Below, in pieces: positions 4,035-41,979 of a stretch of 64,000 nucleotides of DNA. The stretch's first letter is position 1, and each line of letters starts with the position of its first letter. This DNA comes from Promethearchaeota archaeon. Its GTDB lineage: Archaea > Asgardarchaeota > Heimdallarchaeia > Hodarchaeales > Hodarchaeaceae. Below the pieces are notes generated by a model that did not search any database, was not told the origin of the DNA, and saw only the letters and a list, made by a program, of their open reading frames with translations. A program made the position numbers and the translations under genes. Where the stretch lies: the NCBI GenBank assembly GCA_048938105.1, contig JBHLMN010000007.1, positions 64,001-128,000 on the forward strand. Direction: 5' to 3'.

Positions 4035-4586
4035 ATGAATAATAGAATGACCGAGAACATATTAAAAAACGACCATAAAGTTAAAATATGCGTTCTTAGC
4101 CATTCTAAGGAACTTATAAACCATTTCATCCGAAAATTATTATCCATACACAAGGAAGAGGCCACATTCCGCAACTTTGCTGCTTTAGGGATAAGTATTG
4201 CGACAATAAACCTTTCTACAAATAATAATCGTTTTAAACTTATACTCCTTATAACTACTGGTCAAGAATTCTTAGATAAACTACGTCTTTATTACCAAGG
4301 GGCATCAGGAGCAATTATCCTTTTTAATAGTACTAATTCTGATTCATTCGAAGCTGCCAAACGTCATTTCCAATATTTCAGGAAAATTACTCTGAACCCG
4401 CTTGTTCCTATAATTTTCATTGATATTCTAGAAAAATATAAAGAAATCATTATTGAGGAACCTGAACGATTAGAAGAGGAGTCTAATATCCTTTATTATG
4501 AGATAAATGAAGATAATTTCCCTGCTTTTAATAATATTCTTGAATCTATCATCAGGAATCATTGGGCGACTCTAGTACCGTCTTAG
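4035..4586 (+). CDS. Degenerate Rab-like small GTPase (P-loop lost)
   Basis: KICVL...LGISI...ITTGQEFLDKLRLYYQGASGAIILF matches Rab switch II/beta4; no GxxxxGK[ST] or NKxD. Confidence 0.7.
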   Translation: MNNRMTENILKNDHKVKICVLSHSKELINHFIRKLLSIHKEEATFRNFAALGISIATINLSTNNNRFKLILLITTGQEFLDKLRLYYQGASGAIILFNSTNSDSFEAAKRHFQYFRKITLNPLVPIIFIDILEKYKEIIIEEPERLEEESNILYYEINEDNFPAFNNILESIIRNHWATLVPS

Positions 4587-6492: not shown

Positions 6493-7806
6493 TTATTTAT
6501 GATTTTTTAACACAAGAATCCGATCAAACTTCTTCCTTCTTGACCTACTTACAACTTTGTTTAGGGGTATCTCGTCGTTTACAATCGCTAATTCTTTAAG
6601 TCCTAATTTTTCTTGATAAACGTTAGAAACTTCTTTTGCTGTGTTTATAGAATATTTAGCCCTATGAACATCACCAAGAACAAATACGACTAATGAATTA
6701 TTTTTTAAAACTCGTTTAAGCTCCTTTCCCACATCGATCATATTAGCAAGATAATTTTTGCTGTCTTGGATCAATTCTTGTCGTAATAGGTCTTGTTTGG
6801 ACTTATTTAAACCGAGAAAATATAGACGAACTCTATTCTGCCCAACATAATCAAGTGTATTGTAATAAGGGGGACTACAAATAATCACATCTACAGAATC
6901 GTCATTTAATTTCAAAAAACGAGCATCACCGTGAAAAATTTTCGCGTTCGTCTTTAATGGGAATCCTGTAGAATACATCCGCATGATTTTTGCAGCTATT
7001 CGTGGGATTACGGCTCTATATTCAGGTTTATCTTTATTTGGTCGGTACTGAGGATGATCGACTGGTCGAGGGGTCATGGGAATAATACAACCAGTCCAAA
7101 CGGAAAGATACCCTGGGCGGTTCCCATGTAATATACCCATTAAACATCCGAGAAGAAAATATTCTTTTTCATCTGTCAGCTTTTCATTCAAAAAAACAAT
7201 TTCTTTGAGGGTTTCAGGATGAAAATAAGCTTGAATCCAATCGGGAACTCCAGTTATATCGATTTTTGAAGCGTCAATATCTCTAATTTCTTTTAAATAT
7301 TTCAAATAATAATCGAGTGGCTTTCGTTCAAATTTTCCTTTGGCTATCACATATCCGTAAATATTCAGATCAATACCAATGGCATATCTCTGTAAAAAGT
7401 CGGCTTCTAGGGGAACAGTCCCAACACCCATAAACGGATCTAAAAGAATATCTCCTTTTTTGGAAAAAATCTTTATGAGCCAATGTGCAAGTGATGGGGT
7501 CATCCTACCCTGATAGGGGGACAATGAATGAAGCCAATTCCCCCAATGTTGTTTGTCATAAGGATCATCACGCCACCCAACAGTTTTTAAAAGTTCAATT
7601 GCATTTCCCAAAGTCCTAGAATAATTGTCTGAATAGAATTCATCGTTATAGAGTTTTGAATCAAAATTTTTTTTAAACTCCAATTTAAATGACTTTTTCA
7701 ACTTCCCCCTTAAGAGATCCCTCCATCTGTTTCGATATACTGGATAATGTTCTTTGGCAATGAAGGGAAAGGGATCCTTTACTCCTAGGTGATCAAATAA
7801 GGTCAT
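6493..7806 (-). CDS. Amino (probably N4-cytosine) DNA methyltransferase, no adjacent endonuclease
   Basis: Motif I LDPFMGVGT precedes motif IV SPPY with an intervening TRD-sized region (alpha arrangement). Confidence 0.85.
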   Translation of the reverse strand: MTLFDHLGVKDPFPFIAKEHYPVYRNRWRDLLRGKLKKSFKLEFKKNFDSKLYNDEFYSDNYSRTLGNAIELLKTVGWRDDPYDKQHWGNWLHSLSPYQGRMTPSLAHWLIKIFSKKGDILLDPFMGVGTVPLEADFLQRYAIGIDLNIYGYVIAKGKFERKPLDYYLKYLKEIRDIDASKIDITGVPDWIQAYFHPETLKEIVFLNEKLTDEKEYFLLGCLMGILHGNRPGYLSVWTGCIIPMTPRPVDHPQYRPNKDKPEYRAVIPRIAAKIMRMYSTGFPLKTNAKIFHGDARFLKLNDDSVDVIICSPPYYNTLDYVGQNRVRLYFLGLNKSKQDLLRQELIQDSKNYLANMIDVGKELKRVLKNNSLVVFVLGDVHRAKYSINTAKEVSNVYQEKLGLKELAIVNDEIPLNKVVSRSRRKKFDRILVLKNHK

Positions 7807-14373: not shown

Positions 14374-14467
14374 AAAAATGGGATATTCAATGTCGAAAGC
14401 ATCGGATCCCTATCCAGACCATAACTATTTCAAATTCATCAATAGTTGCAATTGATTCGTTACCACG
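14374..14467 (-). pseudogene. Displaced copy of the purH 3' end (direct repeat of 16441-16534)
   Basis: 94 nt with about 11 mismatches; encodes RGNESIATIDEFEIVMVWIGIRCFRH* versus PurH RDSESIEAADEFKIVMVWTGIRCFRH*. Confidence 0.92.
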
Positions 14468-14650
14468 CCTCAATCACCTTTGACTAACCTTTTTATTTCA
14501 AAACATCACCTGATTATAGAATATGAAAAAGATATTTAAGAAAAAGAATTGAATTTATGAGACATATCTCTTCAATTAGGGTTGTTTCAATTTACCAAAA
14601 CAAGAAGAGAGAAGGCCTTCAAAATGAAATAACGAGGAGTGAACTGAAAA

Positions 14651-16438
14651 ATGCCAAATCTGAAAAAAGCAGGTATATTAATTTTAATTTCTTTTCTTAT
14701 AATTTTCATGTTAACAAAAACCTCAATGGTTACCTCAGAGACCAAGCCACTTGACACTAAATGGACATCGGATGGTAGTTCATTGATAGGGTGGAGTCAA
14801 TGTCATGGTGATCCAACGTATGAATCAGAAAGTGAATATATCTGGGATGTAGAATCATATGAAGATGATTTTACTCCTGAAAACAAATCTTTGAGTACAC
14901 AGTTTTGGGATCCTAATTATGATACGGATGAAGTTTATAGATGTGCAGGAATTTTTCGTCTTGAACTAGGTTTAAACGAGTCAACTTGGATCCTTGAGTT
15001 AACGGTCAGTTTTGACGTTACCAACACAAATACCTTTTCTTTCCTAGGTGATATAGGGATTATCATTGACAACGCGAATAAAGAACCCATGCTTTTAGCA
15101 AAAATTCGTGACCATTCCGCTGTTGGTAGTTCACACAGTGTTATTGGTGAGACAGGCTACTATCTTACCGATAGTTCATATAGTCAAGTGATTTATACAA
15201 CTGCTAACTCTACTGATCGAGATATAGACAGTGGCACGTTTGCAATGAAAAAGAACTCTAGTGGCATCTTTATTTACTTCCCTGAAGAAATTCCTGATGG
15301 TTCTGGTTGGAGATTACTAGCAGATAACACAGCAGCTCTACAGAGAGGAACCCCAACATATATTCGGCTCTATTTTTCTCGGAGACGCTTAGGTCCCGCT
15401 GACGCTCGGATCGAGAATGTAACATTTAAACAGGGTGCTAGCTGGGTTTCTGATGGTAGTAGTTTAACTACCTGGAGTCAGTGCCATGGAGACACTGCAT
15501 ATGAAACAGAAAATAGCTACATTTGGGACGTGGAATCTTATAATAATGATTTTACTCCAGAAAACAAAACTTTGAGTACACAGTTTTGGGATCCTAATTA
15601 TGATACGGATGAAATTTACCGATACGCAGGCATTTTTCGAGAGGAGCCTGGATTAATTGAATCCAATTGGATTCTTGAGTTAACGGTCAGTTTTGACGTT
15701 ACCAACACAAATACCTTTTCTTTCCTAGGTGACATAGGGATTATCATTGACAACGCGAATAAAGAACCCATGCTTTTAGCAAAAATTCGTGACCATTCCG
15801 CTGTTGGTAGTTCACACAGTGTTATTGGTGAGACAGGCTACTATCTTACCGATAGTTCATATAGTCAAGTGATTTATACAACTGCTAACTCTACTGATCG
15901 AGATATAGACAGTGGCACGTTTGCAATGAAAAAGAACTCTAGTGGCATCTTTATTTACTTCCCTGAAGAAATTCCTGATGGTTCTGGTTGGAGATTACTA
16001 GCAGATAACACAGCAGCTCTACAGAGAGGAACCCCAACATATATTCGGCTCTATTTTTCTCGGAGACGCTTGGGTCCTGCTGATGCTCGGATTGAGGATG
16101 TGAGATTCAAGTATGGAATTCCGTTACAACTGAGTACAACTATACCGATTACATCCTCATCAACGACCGAAGCTACCAGCTCAACAGAAACTACCACATC
16201 CTCATCAACAACCAAAACTACTAGCTCCACAGAAACTACCACATCCTCATCAACAACCAAAACTACTAGCTCCACAGAAACTACCACATCCTCATCAACA
16301 ACCAAAACTACTAGCTCCACAGAAACTACCACTTCAACATCAACAATGGAACCAACAGTTCAAATATCTCCTAGTTGGACATATTTCATTCTATGTCTAT
16401 CGATCCTTGTTATCCTATTAACTCGAAGAAGGAGATAG
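14651..16438 (+). CDS. Secreted surface protein of unknown function with two tandem 227-aa domains, Ser/Thr stalk and TM anchor
   Basis: Signal peptide; repeats start W(T/V)SDGSSL at 14762 and 15443 (offset 681 nt); SPSW-TM-RRRR end. Confidence 0.88.
   Translation: MPNLKKAGILILISFLIIFMLTKTSMVTSETKPLDTKWTSDGSSLIGWSQCHGDPTYESESEYIWDVESYEDDFTPENKSLSTQFWDPNYDTDEVYRCAGIFRLELGLNESTWILELTVSFDVTNTNTFSFLGDIGIIIDNANKEPMLLAKIRDHSAVGSSHSVIGETGYYLTDSSYSQVIYTTANSTDRDIDSGTFAMKKNSSGIFIYFPEEIPDGSGWRLLADNTAALQRGTPTYIRLYFSRRRLGPADARIENVTFKQGASWVSDGSSLTTWSQCHGDTAYETENSYIWDVESYNNDFTPENKTLSTQFWDPNYDTDEIYRYAGIFREEPGLIESNWILELTVSFDVTNTNTFSFLGDIGIIIDNANKEPMLLAKIRDHSAVGSSHSVIGETGYYLTDSSYSQVIYTTANSTDRDIDSGTFAMKKNSSGIFIYFPEEIPDGSGWRLLADNTAALQRGTPTYIRLYFSRRRLGPADARIEDVRFKYGIPLQLSTTIPITSSSTTEATSSTETTTSSSTTKTTSSTETTTSSSTTKTTSSTETTTSSSTTKTTSSTETTTSTSTMEPTVQISPSWTYFILCLSILVILLTRRRR
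14762..16095 (+). repeat. Intragenic 681-bp tandem duplication
   Basis: 14993-~15390 versus 15674-~16071 are nearly identical (one mismatch seen); the first ~230 bp of each unit are diverged at both silent and coding sites. Confidence 0.95.
16151..16330 (+). repeat. 4 x 45-bp tandem repeat encoding TSSSTT(K/E)(T/A)TSSTETT
   Basis: Units at 16151, 16196, 16241 and 16286; the last three are identical. Confidence 0.95.
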
Positions 16439-16453
16439 GTAAAAATGGGATAT

Positions 16454-17956
16454 TCAATGTCGAAAGCATCGGATCCCTGTCCAGACCATGACTATTTTAA
16501 ATTCATCAGCTGCTTCAATTGATTCACTATCACGTATTGATCCCCCAGAAGCGATTATTCCCCTGATACCTTTTTCTCCAGCAGCATCGATTGAGTCTCT
16601 AAATGGGAAGAACGAATCTGAAGCCAAGACAGCACCTTGTGATCTGTCATTAGCGCGGTTCAAAGCAAGTTTAACTGCTTCCACCCTCGATGGTTGTCCC
16701 ATTCCTATTCCAAGAGTTTTCCTATTAATGCAAACAACGGCCGCGTTTGATTTTACATATTTTACAACCTTCCATGCAAATATAAGATCTTTCACTTCTT
16801 GAGGAGTTGGACTTCTTTTTGTTACAACCCTAAGATCCTCTTCACCAATAACATGCTTATCAATGGATTGTGCTAATAAACCATTAGGTATCAGTCTAAC
16901 CGAGTATTGAGGCATTTCATACTTTTCGAATTTACAGAGAACAATTTTTTCTTTTCTTGTAAGAATTTCATACGCTTCTTTTTCATACTGTGGCGCAATG
17001 ATTGCATCTACAAACATTGCATTAAGTTTTATGGCTAGATTCTCGGTAATCGGCCGATTAAATCCCATTGCTGAACCGAATGCTGAAAGCTCGTCAGTTG
17101 CAAACGCATGATCAAAAGCTGTTTCAATATCCTCTGCACAAGCGAATCCACAAGGACTTGTGTGTTTAATAATAGCACAAGCGGGCTCTGTGTGTTCTGA
17201 AAAAAGTCCCATTGCCGTATGAAAATCCATTAAATTATTTAAAGAGACCTTTTTGCCATGCAATTGTTTGTAAAAAGGATTCTTATTCGATTGCAAATAG
17301 TATCTTGCATCTTGATGCCAATTTTCCCCATAACGTAAATCTTGAGGGTTCTCAAAGTTTAAGATGAAAGTAGAAGGAAACAAATCATTTGTTTTTTCAA
17401 CAAAATATTTACTGATTATGGCATCATATTTAGCAGTATAGAGAAAGGCTTTCTTTGCTAATTCCTTACGTAAATCGAGAGAAACTGTATCCCCTACAAT
17501 TGCATCACCAACGGAATTATAATCATTAAGACTACAAATGACAATAACTTCACGAAAGTTCTTAGCAGCAGCTCGAAGAAGAGTTACACCACCAATATCA
17601 ATATTTTCTGTAGTGTCTACCAAGTTATGTGGTTGTGAGATAACTTGTTGAAACGGATACAGATTTACAACTACTAGACCAAAAGGTTGAATCCCCATTT
17701 CCTTCATTTCTGATGAGTTATCAATCGTTCCAAGAATCCCTCCAAGAATTTTCGGATGTAGGGTTTTAACACGGCCACCTAGAATTTCTGGATATCCTGT
17801 ATGATTAGCAACAGTTTTAACTGGAATTTTCGCAGCATTAAGGATTTCAGCAGTTTTGCCTGTACTAATAAATGAATATCTTGATGAAACTTTCTTACAG
17901 AACTCTACTATTCCAGTTTTATCAAATACGCTAATTAATCCTTGATTTCTCTTCAT
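16454..17956 (-). CDS. purH: Bifunctional AICAR transformylase/IMP cyclohydrolase
   Basis: LISVFDKTG, GGRVKTLHP, NIDIGG, LRYGEN.HQ, KSNA, ASDSFFPF and C-terminal RCFRH. Confidence 0.97.
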   Translation of the reverse strand: MKRNQGLISVFDKTGIVEFCKKVSSRYSFISTGKTAEILNAAKIPVKTVANHTGYPEILGGRVKTLHPKILGGILGTIDNSSEMKEMGIQPFGLVVVNLYPFQQVISQPHNLVDTTENIDIGGVTLLRAAAKNFREVIVICSLNDYNSVGDAIVGDTVSLDLRKELAKKAFLYTAKYDAIISKYFVEKTNDLFPSTFILNFENPQDLRYGENWHQDARYYLQSNKNPFYKQLHGKKVSLNNLMDFHTAMGLFSEHTEPACAIIKHTSPCGFACAEDIETAFDHAFATDELSAFGSAMGFNRPITENLAIKLNAMFVDAIIAPQYEKEAYEILTRKEKIVLCKFEKYEMPQYSVRLIPNGLLAQSIDKHVIGEEDLRVVTKRSPTPQEVKDLIFAWKVVKYVKSNAAVVCINRKTLGIGMGQPSRVEAVKLALNRANDRSQGAVLASDSFFPFRDSIDAAGEKGIRGIIASGGSIRDSESIEAADEFKIVMVWTGIRCFRH

Positions 17957-36993: not shown

Positions 36994-37460
36994 TTAATAA
37001 CCTCCACCGAGATCGACGACAAAAGCTATATCATCTTCTGTTGTCACTCCCCATGGTGATGTGACATTATCAGTCGTTCCAGCTAGCGTATAGTCTTTTG
37101 GATTTGCTACGTCAATCAGGTGGACATACCCTAGGTCACTAGCGACATAAGCTATCTCGTTTGTTGCTATATGGGCATAATTATAGCTTCTACCCGTATA
37201 ATTCCCAATTTTCGTCGGAGATGTGAGATTCTTAGTATCTATGAAGTGTAATCCTGTGCTATGATCTGCAATATATATAAGATCACCTACTATATCTACT
37301 CCCCAGACAAAACCGCCAGTATTGATTTTTGAGATTAAGGTTGGTTTTATGGGATTGTTAATGTTAATTATTTCTAACCTGTCGTTCCTGTCTGCTAGAA
37401 ACACCATATCATTTTTGATTTGGATATCAAGAAAACCAGCGGGGCCATCAACATATGAAT
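36994..37460 (-). pseudogene. Truncated LVIVD-repeat gene fragment
   Basis: About 3.5 LVIVD repeats, no signal peptide or anchor, ends mid-repeat. Confidence 0.65.
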
Positions 37461-37560
37461 TAGATTTACTCTATTTAAACCCTTTACCTAAATAGAGTCT
37501 TTTTTAAAATTGCATATTTGGGACATTCTTCAACTTATAAACGATTTTTGAGGATCAAAG

Positions 37561-38871
37561 TTGAATGAACTTATCAACAATGAAAAGAAATCTGATACTA
37601 ACCTTAGGGGTTACTTAGTTTTCCTTATTGGACAATGGGTCTCGATTTTGGGATCAAATATTGTTGGATTTGGTATTATTTGGTTCTTAACTATCACAAC
37701 AGAGAGTGCGTTTGTACTTGGATTAGCTACTTTCTTGAATTTTGCTCCTTTTCTGATAGCAACACCTATTGCTGGAGTTTTTATAGATCGTTGGAGTCGG
37801 AAAAGAGTAATTGCTTTTGTTGATTTTATGCAAGCAGTTTTTACAGTTATTTTGATTGGTTTCTTTGTAGTAGATGTTTTCAGCCCTTTAGAGCTCGTTG
37901 CGATAATTCTAGCTTTAAATACTATTCGTGCTACGTTTGGAGCCTTCCATACATCAGCTGTGGACACGCTTCTCCCAATAATGGTACCGAAAGAGCAATA
38001 CAGTAGGATTAATGGAGTAAATTATCTTGTAAATGGTGCAATTAACATTGTTGGTCCTCTTTTGGGAGCAGTGGTTCTTGGTTTGGTTTCATTACAAAAT
38101 TTACTGTGGTTGGATGTAATAACTTTCCTAATTGCTATTGTTCCAACCTTAATTATATTCATCCCTGAAGTTAAAAAGGTGATTTTAGATGAAGGGGAAA
38201 AGCTGTCAATTAGATCGGAGTTAAGAGAAGGATTGAAATTTATTAGAGAAACACCTGGATTAATTGCACTTCTCTTTGTATTCGCTGGATCTAACTTTTT
38301 TATACCTCCCTTTTTTATTCAATTACCACTTTTTGTGACATCTATTCACTTCGGTAATGAATCTGATTTAGCTTTTCTAATGGCCTCTCAGCAAGCAGGT
38401 ATGCTTATTGGATCAACTATTATGTCTACATGGAAAGGATTTGAGAACCATGCTAGAGGAGTCGCTTTAGGTATTTTTTTGGGCTACTTGGGATTTATGG
38501 TTATGTTACTTGCACCAGTGGGATCATTTTTGGTTATAAGTATTGGTTTGTTTATAACTGGATTTGTTTTGCCAGTAGCAAACGTTTCAAGTGAAGCCAT
38601 TTGGGCTGCTACTGTACCTCGCGAGTTATTAGGAAGAGTTTATGCAGTTCGACGAACATTAGCACAAATGACCGCACCAGTAGCAATGCTATTATCAGGA
38701 ATAATAGCAGAAATCATTGGTTTGTATTCACTTTTAATGCTTTTTGTTATACTAGGAACACTAATTCTGGGATATTCATGGTTTTTCACAGAGTTATCTA
38801 ATGTTGAAAAGATCATTCAAGAAACTAAAGAGCAAGAAAGTATTGAAAAAGTGCAAAGTACACCTCAATAA
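37561..38871 (+). CDS. MFS transporter (MefA/DHA3-like)
   Basis: GQWVSILGS, GVFIDRWSRK motif A, VPRELLGRV; 12 TM. Confidence 0.93.
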   Translation: MNELINNEKKSDTNLRGYLVFLIGQWVSILGSNIVGFGIIWFLTITTESAFVLGLATFLNFAPFLIATPIAGVFIDRWSRKRVIAFVDFMQAVFTVILIGFFVVDVFSPLELVAIILALNTIRATFGAFHTSAVDTLLPIMVPKEQYSRINGVNYLVNGAINIVGPLLGAVVLGLVSLQNLLWLDVITFLIAIVPTLIIFIPEVKKVILDEGEKLSIRSELREGLKFIRETPGLIALLFVFAGSNFFIPPFFIQLPLFVTSIHFGNESDLAFLMASQQAGMLIGSTIMSTWKGFENHARGVALGIFLGYLGFMVMLLAPVGSFLVISIGLFITGFVLPVANVSSEAIWAATVPRELLGRVYAVRRTLAQMTAPVAMLLSGIIAEIIGLYSLLMLFVILGTLILGYSWFFTELSNVEKIIQETKEQESIEKVQSTPQ

Positions 38872-39059
38872 CTTATTACCCAAAACATCTCCCAGCTTCT
38901 AATTGGCTTTACTCTCTTGTACTATTTATCAAGCTACTTCCATAGTAAAGTTTTTAAAGATATTTCGTTTCATAATATTTATCATTGTAAAATAATGTCA
39001 AACGTTATACGTTATACGATATCTCTAGTATAATTTTTTGAGCGATTTAAATAAGGAGA

Positions 39060-40010
39060 ATGAGAAATTTGAGAATTAAAAAGAAATTAGCAATTATGTG
39101 TATGCTGATAGGGTTGATCCTTGCATCTTCCATAAACCGAAGCTCTGCTACCCTCGTCTGGGAAGAGGATTTTGAGAATCCCCCATATAATGATTGGTTT
39201 CTCCATAGTTATTACATTTACCCATATAGTGCGGTAAATTATAATAACCTAGTTATTACTAATGGATCTTTACACCAACCAACTCCTGATGGGATGCAAA
39301 TTTTTGCTACTCATGATAGCTCAGTAGCATATGGAACTTGGAGTTTTGACGTTCAAATAGTTCCTATCGAATTATATAAAGAATTTGAAATTTATGGAGC
39401 AATGACTGAAATAATGTTCATAGGGAACTTCAAAGGTTATAGTGAACCCAAAAGCTTTAACCTGTCCGGATATGATTTCTCTCAAGTTTCTGATAGAATG
39501 AAATCATATGCCCTTTATATCATATCTGGAATATCAAGGTGGGGCTTACCTTTAAATTCAATATCATTATACCTCTGGATTGGAAGGTATTACCAATCGG
39601 ATCAACAAACCCAAAATATCTGGCAAAGTATCGGTTTTAGCGAATTTTCTTCCCCTATCAATGGTTCTCATCATATAGACATTACCCGTGGATCGGCAGG
39701 AGAATTTAAGGTCTATTTTGACTCAGAACTTCTATTTCAAGTTACTAATAATGAAATCACCACTTCAACCTTTTTTGACATTTCTACTTTTGTCGGGAAC
39801 TTAACATTCGATAATCTTACATTTTGTGATAGCGTTGGTAGTTGTCCCCCGACTACGACGACAACGACTACCATGACAACGAATACTACGACTCTGGATA
39901 CAACTCCTACCACCACAACTACTGATAGTGGAACTTTCGGGTTTGAATTTGGAGTGCTGATACTAGTTCTCATCTGTAGTGTGTTCGTTGGTCACAAACA
40001 GAAAAGATGA
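39060..40010 (+). CDS. Secreted lectin/beta-sandwich-like surface protein with Thr stalk and TM anchor
   Basis: Signal peptide, VWEEDF...AYGTWSFD...HHIDITR...FKVYFD...FDNL, poly-Thr and TFGF-TM-KQKR. Confidence 0.82.
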   Translation: MRNLRIKKKLAIMCMLIGLILASSINRSSATLVWEEDFENPPYNDWFLHSYYIYPYSAVNYNNLVITNGSLHQPTPDGMQIFATHDSSVAYGTWSFDVQIVPIELYKEFEIYGAMTEIMFIGNFKGYSEPKSFNLSGYDFSQVSDRMKSYALYIISGISRWGLPLNSISLYLWIGRYYQSDQQTQNIWQSIGFSEFSSPINGSHHIDITRGSAGEFKVYFDSELLFQVTNNEITTSTFFDISTFVGNLTFDNLTFCDSVGSCPPTTTTTTTMTTNTTTLDTTPTTTTTDSGTFGFEFGVLILVLICSVFVGHKQKR

Positions 40011-40197
40011 ACCTGGTGGTACTTCTTAAGAAAACTAAGGATAAGTTCGTATATTATTCTTGATGGAATGTCATCATCTTTTAAACTTCCTTGAGATAAT
40101 TCTCTATTTCAGCAATTTTTATTCTACCTCTTACGGAATATGCTCTATCCTTTTTTATAAATTCCTTATTGATCCGATGAATCTCCAAACTTATTTT

Positions 40198-40440
40198 GGA
40201 AGAGTTTATGTAGTTCGATGAACATTAGCGCAAATGACTTCACCAGTAGCAATGTTATTATCGGGAATTATAGCAGAAATTGTCGCTTTGTATACTGTCT
40301 TAATGCTATGTTTAATATTAGGAACACTAATTCTTGGATATTCATGGTTTTTCATTACCTTATCTAAGGTTGAGAAGATTATTCAAGAAACTAAAGAACA
40401 AGAAAAAAGTATTGAACAAGTGCAAAGTACACCGCAATAA
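40198..40440 (+). pseudogene. Displaced copy of the MFS gene 3' end (direct repeat of 38632-38871)
   Basis: About 86% identical by manual alignment (33 mismatches, one 3-nt indel); CGA>TGA nonsense near its start; ends VQSTPQ* like the MFS. Confidence 0.95.
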
Positions 40441-40464
40441 TTTTGTACAAAAAACGTTATTTAC

Positions 40465-41979
40465 CTATCTTAATCCTAAAAAGCTACGAAGTGAAGGATT
40501 CATTTCCGCAACTTTTTCTTTACTCATCAATTCAAAGTATTGTCTCATAATACTAACAGAGAGAAGGATACCCATCCCAGAACCGATTGCCCCAAGAAAA
40601 TCCGCAAAAGCTGCAAGACAACCCATGAATAACCCACTGATTACAGCTATTGTAGGAATATACATCTCTAATCGGCGTTCAACAATCTTTTTGTTTTGAC
40701 GCCAGCCTGGCATCTGCATTCCTGATTGTAAGAACTGGCTTGCTACATCACGCGGCCCCATTCCAGCTGTTTCTAACCACATAACTGAAAAAATGACTGC
40801 AAGAATAATGAGAATGCTTGCATAAATAAAAGCACGAGCTAGGGACTCCATTGGTTTAGCAGGATTAATAACCCCAAAATCACCAATAAGTGAACGAGGT
40901 GGGGTTAAGAAATAGACAAGACCCCCTGTAGGGACATACTGATTAGAAACTTCATCAATCATGAACGTTCCTAAAAATAGGGTTAATGGATTTATAGTAT
41001 TTTGTCCATTGGGGGTAGTAATATTCCAGATTATTTGAGAGATAAAGTAGATATCAGCGAATACGGCTGAAGATAAGATGACTGGGATATTTGATACATA
41101 AAGTAGCTTAATAGGATAGGTTGAACGGATCCCCTTATATTGGGTATAAGAGATTGGAATTTCAATCCGCATTGATTCAAAATAGATCACAATGATAAAC
41201 ACAACAATAGTCGCAATGACAGAGAGGAGAGATAAGGAAGGGAGATTTACATTCTCAGATGGACTATAGCGGAAAAATAAGGCTCCTATTGCTTCAATTG
41301 GCCCTCGTTGTGTTGCCCAAGCCAAAAATGCAAAAGCAATCCCTCTCATCGAATTTACAGCAGGATCACCTAATCCTTCCTCAACGAGTTGTGCTGCAAA
41401 TAATCCTTGGAAAATTTGTAAGCCAACGCCTCCTGCAATAAAAAGGGAAATTCCTGATCCTAAACCCCACCCTTTCTGAACTATTTCATCAAGTAGAATG
41501 ATGATGATGCCTGCTGCTAATAATTGGGTAATTATTGCTAATTGATCCTCAGGTTTCAGATCAGTTCCATATGTTCCCCCAATTAAGAAAGCAGATGCTT
41601 CTATTATTGTCATTACTACTGACATGACCTTTTGGGCACCAGTATAGAGAGATCTCTCTTCTGGATCCCCCATATTTACACTGATAATTTTTGATCCAAC
41701 TAAAATTTGCATTATAAGCCCTGCTGTGACAATCGGGCCAATCCCGAGCTCGGCCAATGATCCTTGAGTTGAAGCTGTAATTGTGCGTAGATATGCAAAA
41801 GAGTCTGCTCCTTCATATTTAGCACCGATAATTGGTGTTGATGCCATTACAAAATAAATAACAAGAGCAGCAAATGTCCAGACCATTTTTTCATTAAAAT
41901 GCACCTCCCGAGTAGGTTTAGCGACTTCTGGGGTTATTGACATGAATGGCCGAACAGCTTGAAGAAACTTAGAAGTCAT
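40465..41979 (-). CDS. secY: Preprotein translocase SecY/Sec61alpha
   Basis: ELGIGPIVTAGLIMQ, KGWGLGSGISLFI, YPIKLLYVSNIPVIL, GSGMGILL; Sec61alpha-like N-terminus. Confidence 0.97.
   Translation of the reverse strand: MTSKFLQAVRPFMSITPEVAKPTREVHFNEKMVWTFAALVIYFVMASTPIIGAKYEGADSFAYLRTITASTQGSLAELGIGPIVTAGLIMQILVGSKIISVNMGDPEERSLYTGAQKVMSVVMTIIEASAFLIGGTYGTDLKPEDQLAIITQLLAAGIIIILLDEIVQKGWGLGSGISLFIAGGVGLQIFQGLFAAQLVEEGLGDPAVNSMRGIAFAFLAWATQRGPIEAIGALFFRYSPSENVNLPSLSLLSVIATIVVFIIVIYFESMRIEIPISYTQYKGIRSTYPIKLLYVSNIPVILSSAVFADIYFISQIIWNITTPNGQNTINPLTLFLGTFMIDEVSNQYVPTGGLVYFLTPPRSLIGDFGVINPAKPMESLARAFIYASILIILAVIFSVMWLETAGMGPRDVASQFLQSGMQMPGWRQNKKIVERRLEMYIPTIAVISGLFMGCLAAFADFLGAIGSGMGILLSVSIMRQYFELMSKEKVAEMNPSLRSFLGLR

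Follow-up and report, generated by a model that had tools for sequence, protein, structure and literature searches.

A surface-protein gene inserted between two copies of a transporter gene end in a Hodarchaeales archaeon, and recurrence of the layout across its genome

Some mobile elements replace the end of the gene in which they settle: e14 and phage 21 in Escherichia coli icd, and islands that target tRNA genes or ssrA, are driven by an integrase, use a defined core and substitute the 3′ end of their target. Insertion beside a conserved gene can also proceed by homology-facilitated illegitimate recombination (HFIR) or by Campbell-type insertion-duplication, reportedly worked out originally in Acinetobacter, pneumococcus and Pseudomonas. 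Both are cited for naturally transformable bacteria in PMC5361080 and PMC3240628, and the former, citing Jackson et al. 2009, proposes HFIR for the C-terminal displacement at Rhs, contact-dependent inhibition (CDI) and type VI secretion system (T6SS) effector-immunity loci. Restriction-modification (RM) units insert with long target duplication, leaving direct repeats of 46-420 bp (Furuta, Abe & Kobayashi 2010, PMC2853133), in a survey that recovered no archaeal case, and the mobile elements of Heimdallarchaeum are tRNA-targeting and integrase- or giant-gene-bearing (PMC8813620). Here we analyzed a 64,000-nt stretch, hereafter the window, of a Promethearchaeota archaeon of the order Hodarchaeales (assembly GCA_048938105.1, contig JBHLMN010000007.1, positions 64,001 to 128,000), in which a gene for a surface protein has been inserted between the working 3′ end of an MFS transporter gene and a displaced second copy of that end.

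The locus shares with HFIR and Campbell-type insertions one homologous anchor, one apparently non-homologous joint, the lack of an element recombinase and foreign genes beside a conserved gene. It differs from them in its Asgard host, in being deduced from sequence only, in its 14%-diverged anchor and in belonging to a set of ~16 loci biased to gene 3′ ends. RM-unit insertions are similar in their direct repeats of tens to hundreds of base pairs, their small unit without a mobility gene and their single-copy target in the empty-site genome, and some of their repeats overlap gene 3′ ends, as here. Those repeats are, however, near-identical (for example, 417/423), whereas the copies described below differ like two working alleles, and the cargo is not an RM system. 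As at Rhs, CDI and T6SS loci, a new 3′ end with its cargo would have displaced the old end, which is kept downstream as an orphan, but the polymorphic toxin tips of those loci change function, while the transporter end is conserved and the cargo unrelated to its target. With e14 and phage 21, the locus would have in common that the insert brings a substitute 3′ end with mostly silent differences and leaves the native end as a direct repeat; the element-encoded integrase and defined core of those elements were not found here. The Heimdallarchaeum elements are unlike this type of scar. The scar architecture is established in bacteria, limited literature searches recovered no description of such scars in archaea, and the recurrence at ~16 loci across this Asgard genome is more interesting than the single locus.

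The locus and the divergence of its two gene ends

The components of the locus are listed in Table 1. We denote as c1 the repeat copy at the working MFS end and as c2 the copy that forms the downstream stub; G000 is the genome under study, other G numbers are relatives and C numbers are contigs. The direct repeat comprises the last 80 MFS codons and 15 nt past the stop, with 86% identity between copies, 207 of 240 nt identical across the 80 codons and one 3-nt indel. Between c1 and c2, 25 sense codons differ, 13 of them synonymously, and a nonsense change (CGA to TGA at 40219-40221) lies in c2; the longest exact run common to both copies is ~19 nt within the 258-nt repeat. BLAST of the genome against itself found only these two copies in the 5.85-Mb assembly. 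The interval between them measures 1308 nt and contains a single open reading frame (ORF). The initial annotation, made from the sequence alone, had reported a repeat at 38632-38871 and 40198-40440 with 26 differing codons (13 synonymous, one nonsense) and ~1.3 kb between the copies holding one gene for a secreted protein with a Thr-rich stalk and a transmembrane (TM) segment. All of this held, with the repeat slightly longer than first drawn. As in site-specific gene-end elements, the insert lies between direct repeats and its target gene has remained intact. Downstream, 24 nt separate the c2 stop codon from the convergent secY stop, and the 9 nt directly after the c2 stop codon are identical to those in the closest relative, G007. 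Upstream of 40195 the similarity between the copies ends sharply, placing a joint at 40194/40195, where microhomology amounts to at most a common 5-nt TTATT just upstream.

Table 1. Features of the MFS locus and of a second cassette in the window
Feature	Position	Strand	Evidence or remark
Intact MFS transporter gene, insertion target, 436 aa	37561..38871	+	Pfam MFS_1 5.8e-30
Repeat copy 1 (c1), working MFS 3′ end plus 15 nt post-stop	38629..38886	+	Alignment
Cargo leader, AT-rich spacer	38887..39059		AGGAG 6 nt before ATG; genome-unique (own-genome blastn)
Cargo gene, 316 aa	39060..40010	+	Signal peptide, Thr-rich stalk, C-terminal TM segment
Cargo trailer, up to the apparently non-homologous joint (40194/40195) with the stub	40011..40194		Without similarity elsewhere in the genome
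Repeat copy 2 (c2), displaced MFS 3′ stub with TGA at 40219-40221, in ancestral position against secY	40195..40455	+	Junction matches G011
Convergent secY, ancestral downstream neighbor of MFS	40465..41979	-	Pfam SecY 1.8e-62
Second cassette in the window	14374..16534	-	purH 3′ end 16441-16534 recurs at 14374-14467; 595-aa gene 14651-16438 between

Neighborhoods were compared among 20 genomes of the genus, with seven ortholog loci examined. The MFS protein has 90% amino acid identity to its ortholog in G007 and 70-73% to those in G009, G011, G012 and G014. In G011, the order is MFS, secY, winged helix-turn-helix (wHTH), MazG and DHH, with MFS and secY ~30 nt apart, that is, an empty site. G007 has a single MFS gene followed by MazG and DHH, and in G009, G012 and G014 a single MFS gene is followed by DHH. 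Neither tandem MFS genes nor the cargo gene occurred at the locus in any of the seven relatives. Given the empty site in G011 and the lack of cargo in the relatives, the stub-secY junction is ancestral and the surface gene between MFS and secY is an insertion. This comparison had been suggested in the initial annotation, which named full tandem MFS paralogs in relatives as the contrary outcome.

A strain-chimeric join was weighed for this metagenome-assembled genome, the bin having an estimated contamination of 7.25%. A 7267-nt Logan contig from run X1, built independently, spans 37400-40668 without a single difference. From run X2, a second sample of the same study, contigs at 38518-38932 and 39674-40668 bridge both stub junctions with 1-2 differences, and in run X3, from another study, a 94%-identical contig crosses c1 into the cargo flank, to 38935. 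Spanning contigs from two samples, together with the lack of an exact c1/c2 run longer than ~19 nt that could mislead an assembler with k>=21, make a misassembly, which the initial annotation had raised against its own reading, so unlikely as to be nearly negligible.

The divergence between the copies resembles that of coding sequences. By the Nei-Gojobori (NG86) method, c1 and c2 differ by 18 synonymous (Sd) and 14 nonsynonymous (Nd) changes, corresponding to dS 0.44, dN 0.08 and dN/dS 0.19, far from the value of about 1 that the initial annotation had set against itself. Decay after an in-place duplication was simulated with an omega of 0.11 for the gene copy (the G000 versus G007 value) and a stub evolving neutrally, each run ending at an Sd of 18. 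It gave an expected Nd of 29-39 versus 15 observed (P 0-0.0125 for kappa 1-4; 0.05 for kappa 8), while simulation of two fully constrained copies gave an expected Nd of ~6 (P ~0.01). With G007 as outgroup, unique changes numbered 17 in c1 and 17 in c2, where decay of a neutral stub predicts ~1:2.9 (P=0.002). Because the observed Nd lies between the neutral-stub and full-constraint expectations, allelic divergence under selection followed by a short decay fits the data, the neutral period of the stub being, by our rough estimate, ~0.05 substitutions per site. Judging by these substitution patterns, both copies appear to have evolved as working alleles, in agreement with the proposal of the initial annotation that they diverged while both were coding.

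The tree of both 240-nt ends that the initial annotation had recommended was built by maximum likelihood (ML). It places c1 and c2 as sisters (86/79) on branches of 0.081 and 0.11 and unites them with G007 in one clade (99/99). Their dS of 0.44 is similar to the G000-G007 value over the rest of the gene (0.38), while c1 and c2 differ from G007 by dS 0.69 and 0.72, respectively; c1-c2 identity is 86% versus 82-84% to G007. With c1 and c2 as sisters and G007 outside, a donor would be no more distant from G000 than G007 is. Sites unique to c2 cluster in the first ~180 nt; those unique to c1 cluster in the last ~80 nt, together with the indel and the differences beyond the stop codon. This reciprocal clustering (Mann-Whitney P=0.025; max-chi2 permutation P=0.067) would be the pattern of a single crossover near 38808-38814 and is only suggestive. 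‘Native’ and ‘foreign’ composites of c1 and c2 differ from G007 by dS 0.60 and 0.83, too weak a contrast for polarity. The initial annotation had regarded the MFS 3′ end as replaced by a foreign allele; the coding-like divergence agrees with an allelic origin of one copy, whereas, with two sister copies equidistant from G007, either could be the foreign one.

Gene-end repeats elsewhere in the genome

A self-BLAST of the assembly, also proposed in the initial annotation for duplicated gene 3′ ends, was used for a census in which repeat pairs were classed by their ORFs and retained where an intact ORF had its stub no more than 20 kb away. Sixteen such pairs, the MFS and purH loci included, have the layout described above, with a directly repeated 3′ end and the stub downstream. 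Other pairs comprised three with a 3′ stub upstream, eight at 5′ ends, eight internal and two inverted. The targets are unrelated and include an aldo-keto reductase (AKR), EamA, a cation-efflux protein, YdjM, GNAT, a PNK-like protein, an HNH protein and TnpB. Across these loci, the target sequence differs every time and no shared motif was visible at the joints. Pooled dN/dS was 0.23 over 15 pairs, nine of which had values <=0.25. Cargo families comprised Kelch, VWA, caspase/propeller, ICMT/PEMT, YdjM, DUF123, radical-SAM and solute-binding proteins, besides many proteins of unknown family. A Pfam scan of 30 cargo proteins from about a dozen similar loci recovered neither a recombinase or transposase nor a clear nuclease, the sole exception being a DUF123 cargo at the TnpB-linked C59 locus, which is possibly nuclease-related. 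The second cassette of the window (C42 80438/78371 in the genome-wide class) belongs to this set. Its repeat is ~88% identical, Pfam confirms the purH target and the 595-aa gene lacks a clear Pfam family.

Empty sites were found for AKR (C4), EamA (C20) and YdjM (C49), with the target directly followed by the post-stub gene, and no cargo, in every relative examined. At EamA, the stub is 84% identical to G003 (dS 0.51), close to the rest of the gene (85.5%, dS 0.57), while the working 3′ end is only 72% identical with saturated dS, and site patterns comprise 25 gene-unique versus 6 stub-unique positions. By these values, the EamA stub is clearly native and the working end foreign. The tree of the EamA 3′ ends was not resolved. 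The AKR copies (G000:C4:118706-118947 and 120065-120305, L046) are sisters with 92% identity. They differ only in the 3′ half of the repeat, the 5′ half being free of differences, which suggests a conversion or crossover tract. YdjM, like MFS, gave a three-way tie.

Further direct repeats, 310-560 nt long with 83-93% identity and a spacing of 1.5-6 kb, were noted at C6:191785/193287, C11:108772/112398, C37:34096/39198 and C48:16348/22398. In these, no single ORF covers 60% of either copy, and they are unlike the 3′-end stubs in kind.

Routes of insertion and rival explanations

Two features of the MFS locus are those of a homology-anchored insertion, namely, allelic divergence at one joint and an empty site with the stub beside its ancestral neighbor. 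We consider it probable that a fragment consisting of an MFS end and a surface gene, derived from a closely related Hodarchaeales lineage, recombined in at the MFS gene without an element recombinase. For the donor, the chemistry of the joints and the direction of replacement, we infer the following course. The donor fragment, from a closely related, unsampled Hodarchaeales lineage, would have entered the chromosome at the resident MFS gene, carrying the last ~80 codons of the donor MFS allele followed by a lectin-like surface gene with its own leader. The first joint would have formed by homologous pairing within the MFS 3′ end and the second, at 40194/40195, without homology. This could have occurred either by a single crossover of the circularised fragment (Campbell type) or by break repair that used homology on one side and illegitimate joining on the other (HFIR type), the joining presumably being done by the general recombination machinery of the host with no element-encoded recombinase. 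The product would be an intact, possibly chimeric MFS gene, a new surface gene and a promoterless stub still abutting secY, which would then have started to decay (one TGA). Of the Campbell-type single crossover put forward in the initial annotation, the homology-anchored joint stands, whereas the crossover is not separable from one-ended illegitimate joining and the chimera signal (P values above) is only suggestive.

Several observations weigh against this reading. The divergence tests rest on 80 codons, and with c1 and c2 as sisters equally far from G007, topology alone allows a duplication within the G000 lineage. A Ku gene is absent from the genome and classical end joining is unavailable for the illegitimate joint; any such joint would therefore need microhomology-mediated joining. 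The GC content of the cargo equals that of its flanks, giving no compositional sign of foreign origin. Neither the donor allele nor a donor MFS-surface gene order was found among 5.8 billion proteins and JGI metagenome contigs; the 68-aa stub ORF, searched against longer proteins, had two matches only, in G007 (79%) and in the MFS protein of the window itself (82%), and the scan of JGI metagenome contigs with the MFS protein recovered no relative. No circular or empty-site form was seen among the Logan contigs, which, as contigs only, provide absence of evidence only.

Among other histories of the two copies, insertion might have duplicated the 258-nt target in place, leaving initially identical copies of which the promoterless stub drifted. 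Such an event would produce the architecture of bacterial RM units, in which direct repeats of 46-420 bp occur without a mobility gene (PMC2853133), and it would accommodate both the position of c1 and c2 as each other's closest relatives and the 92% identity of the AKR copies. It conflicts with the neutral-stub simulation at kappa 1-4 (P<=0.0125) and, at the margin, at kappa 8, with the symmetric branch lengths, with the presence of just one in-frame indel and one stop despite a dS of 0.44 and with the EamA locus, where the divergent copy is the working end and not the stub; we regard it as unlikely. Coding-like divergence of sister copies would also result from long-lived, full-length tandem MFS paralogs, insertion of the surface gene having later removed the 5′ 1070 nt of the downstream one. 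This history is doubtful to a somewhat greater degree, as it takes three events versus one, would have to be repeated at ~16 loci and finds no tandem MFS in the seven relatives with an ortholog locus.

Enzyme-driven routes were judged by the genes and sites present. The locus might be the remnant, or a derivative mobilised in trans, of a site-specific integrative element at the MFS 3′ end that supplied a replacement end, in the manner of e14 and phage 21 at icd. The layout is the same, the displaced 3′ end has mostly silent differences and three tyrosine recombinase genes in the genome (on C14, C56 and C45) could act in trans. This contig carries no PF00589 tyrosine recombinase and none of the genome's 19 TnpB matches, extending to the whole contig the statement of the initial annotation that the window lacks an integrase or transposase. 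The cargo likewise encodes no integrase or recombinase, its single ORF having no Pfam match and a lectin fold, and none was found among the 30 cargo proteins mentioned above. An insert of only 1.3 kb is flanked by 258-nt repeats at 86% identity, with no identical core beyond ~19 nt and no common motif visible among 14 loci. A matrix for dif-like sites (11-6-11, 28-nt), built from 10 genomic sites, identified none at the cassette borders, where the dif-like cassette arrays of this genome, or integron cassettes, would have one; the best window match (9.4 bits, 38988-39015, minus strand), in the cargo leader, is at chance level, and a second match of the same level (8.3 bits at position 102) indicates the chance rate. 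Because each locus has its own target, the repeats are long and diverged and the cargo comes without a recombinase, we regard site-specific integration as unlikely and homology-dependent recombination as the economical reading. More improbable still is a homing-type replacement, in which cleavage of the MFS 3′ end by a nuclease is followed by repair that brings in a resistant allele with cargo, as for WHO elements and yeast FBA1. It would leave the same product, with a replaced end bearing silent changes and displaced ends downstream, but no nuclease gene was found in the cargo, whose sole ORF has a lectin fold, or nearby.

Generalizing from homology-anchored insertion at MFS, we raise as a tentative possibility that gene 3′ ends of Hodarchaeales serve as general landing pads for recombinase-free gene gain by homology only, with units of gene end and cargo, often surface or membrane genes, moving between sister lineages, popping out as circles via their direct repeats and re-entering relatives. 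If so, they would represent mobile cassettes without any mobility gene of their own. The bias to 3′ ends may come from selection, as a 3′ stub would be promoterless and silent while the gene stays whole. Insertion of this kind would offer a concrete route for an Asgard archaeon to add accessory surface genes without integrases or transposases and with the resident gene intact. The displaced stubs would constitute datable scars and a simple genome-wide marker for counting events in other genomes. The ~16 scars, at a pooled dN/dS of 0.23, point to recombination with related lineages as a regular supply of new genes in this archaeal group, the one nearest to eukaryotes.

The cargo protein and neighboring features

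In the cargo protein, a signal peptide precedes a domain of ~230 residues and a Thr-rich stalk, and the TM segment at the C terminus has basic residues behind it. It has no Pfam match. AlphaFold2 with a 14-sequence alignment predicted a beta-sandwich (mean pLDDT 76.8), and Foldseek matched the model to CBM66 (4b1l), GH16 laminarinases, a galectin-like protein and Emp46/47 lectins (E 1e-7 to 5e-9). We read it, on the basis of this model, as a putative carbohydrate-binding surface protein with a concanavalin-A-like lectin/glucanase fold; on our own reading of the sequence, the GH16-type ExDxxE motif was not seen. The cargo gene looks self-contained, given the AGGAG 6 nt before its ATG. No Rfam match at the locus reached threshold, and the terminator scan recovered no site resembling one; a sigma-70 promoter scan is not meaningful for an archaeon. 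The best homologs of the protein have only ~50-51% identity, and the closest relatives either lack it or have a very distant counterpart. In another species, G006 (L097, G006:C172), a homolog (~49% amino acid identity) is flanked by the 3′ end of a 576-aa gene on one side and a 118-nt stub of that gene on the other, with the repeat at 4353-4470 and 6775-6892 and a dN/dS of 0.54.

For the MFS stub itself, a role as a silent cassette that varies the MFS C terminus was rejected because most c1/c2 differences are synonymous. The stub could conceivably still act as a functional 68-aa protein; its unique changes relative to G007 fall on codon positions one, two and three in numbers of 6, 3 and 6, unlike the third-position bias of a selected coding sequence.

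Pfam assigned the genes downstream of the locus to a double wHTH regulator, a MazG-like protein and a DHH/DHHA1 protein, and an upstream gene to a beta-helix surface protein. Between the latter and MFS, a 137-aa ORF with a single LVIVD repeat (36994-37407, minus strand) may be a truncated gene remnant. The genome contains two copies of secY, the one next to the stub and another at G000:C18:52889-54397 (L066), with 88% protein identity. Neither lies in a ribosomal-protein operon, and the C18 copy adjoins a SAM hydroxide adenosyltransferase gene. Two secY copies also occur in G009, a single-contig genome, and in G012 and G014. At window position 40495, contigs from runs X1 and X5 show loose ends, being ~90% identical to the 3′ part of secY and then continuing into a different downstream sequence; they probably represent the second secY copy or come from a related organism whose gene order differs.

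On C56, co-oriented dif-like sites of the ATGTCGTATAA-CGTTGG type were located at G000:C56:188071, 189231, 197780, 200725 and 216687, with a tyrosine recombinase gene at C56:201681-202088. One C56 repeat pair from our first list of repeats ends exactly at the CGTTGG spacer of a dif-like site and belongs to a separate dif-like system.

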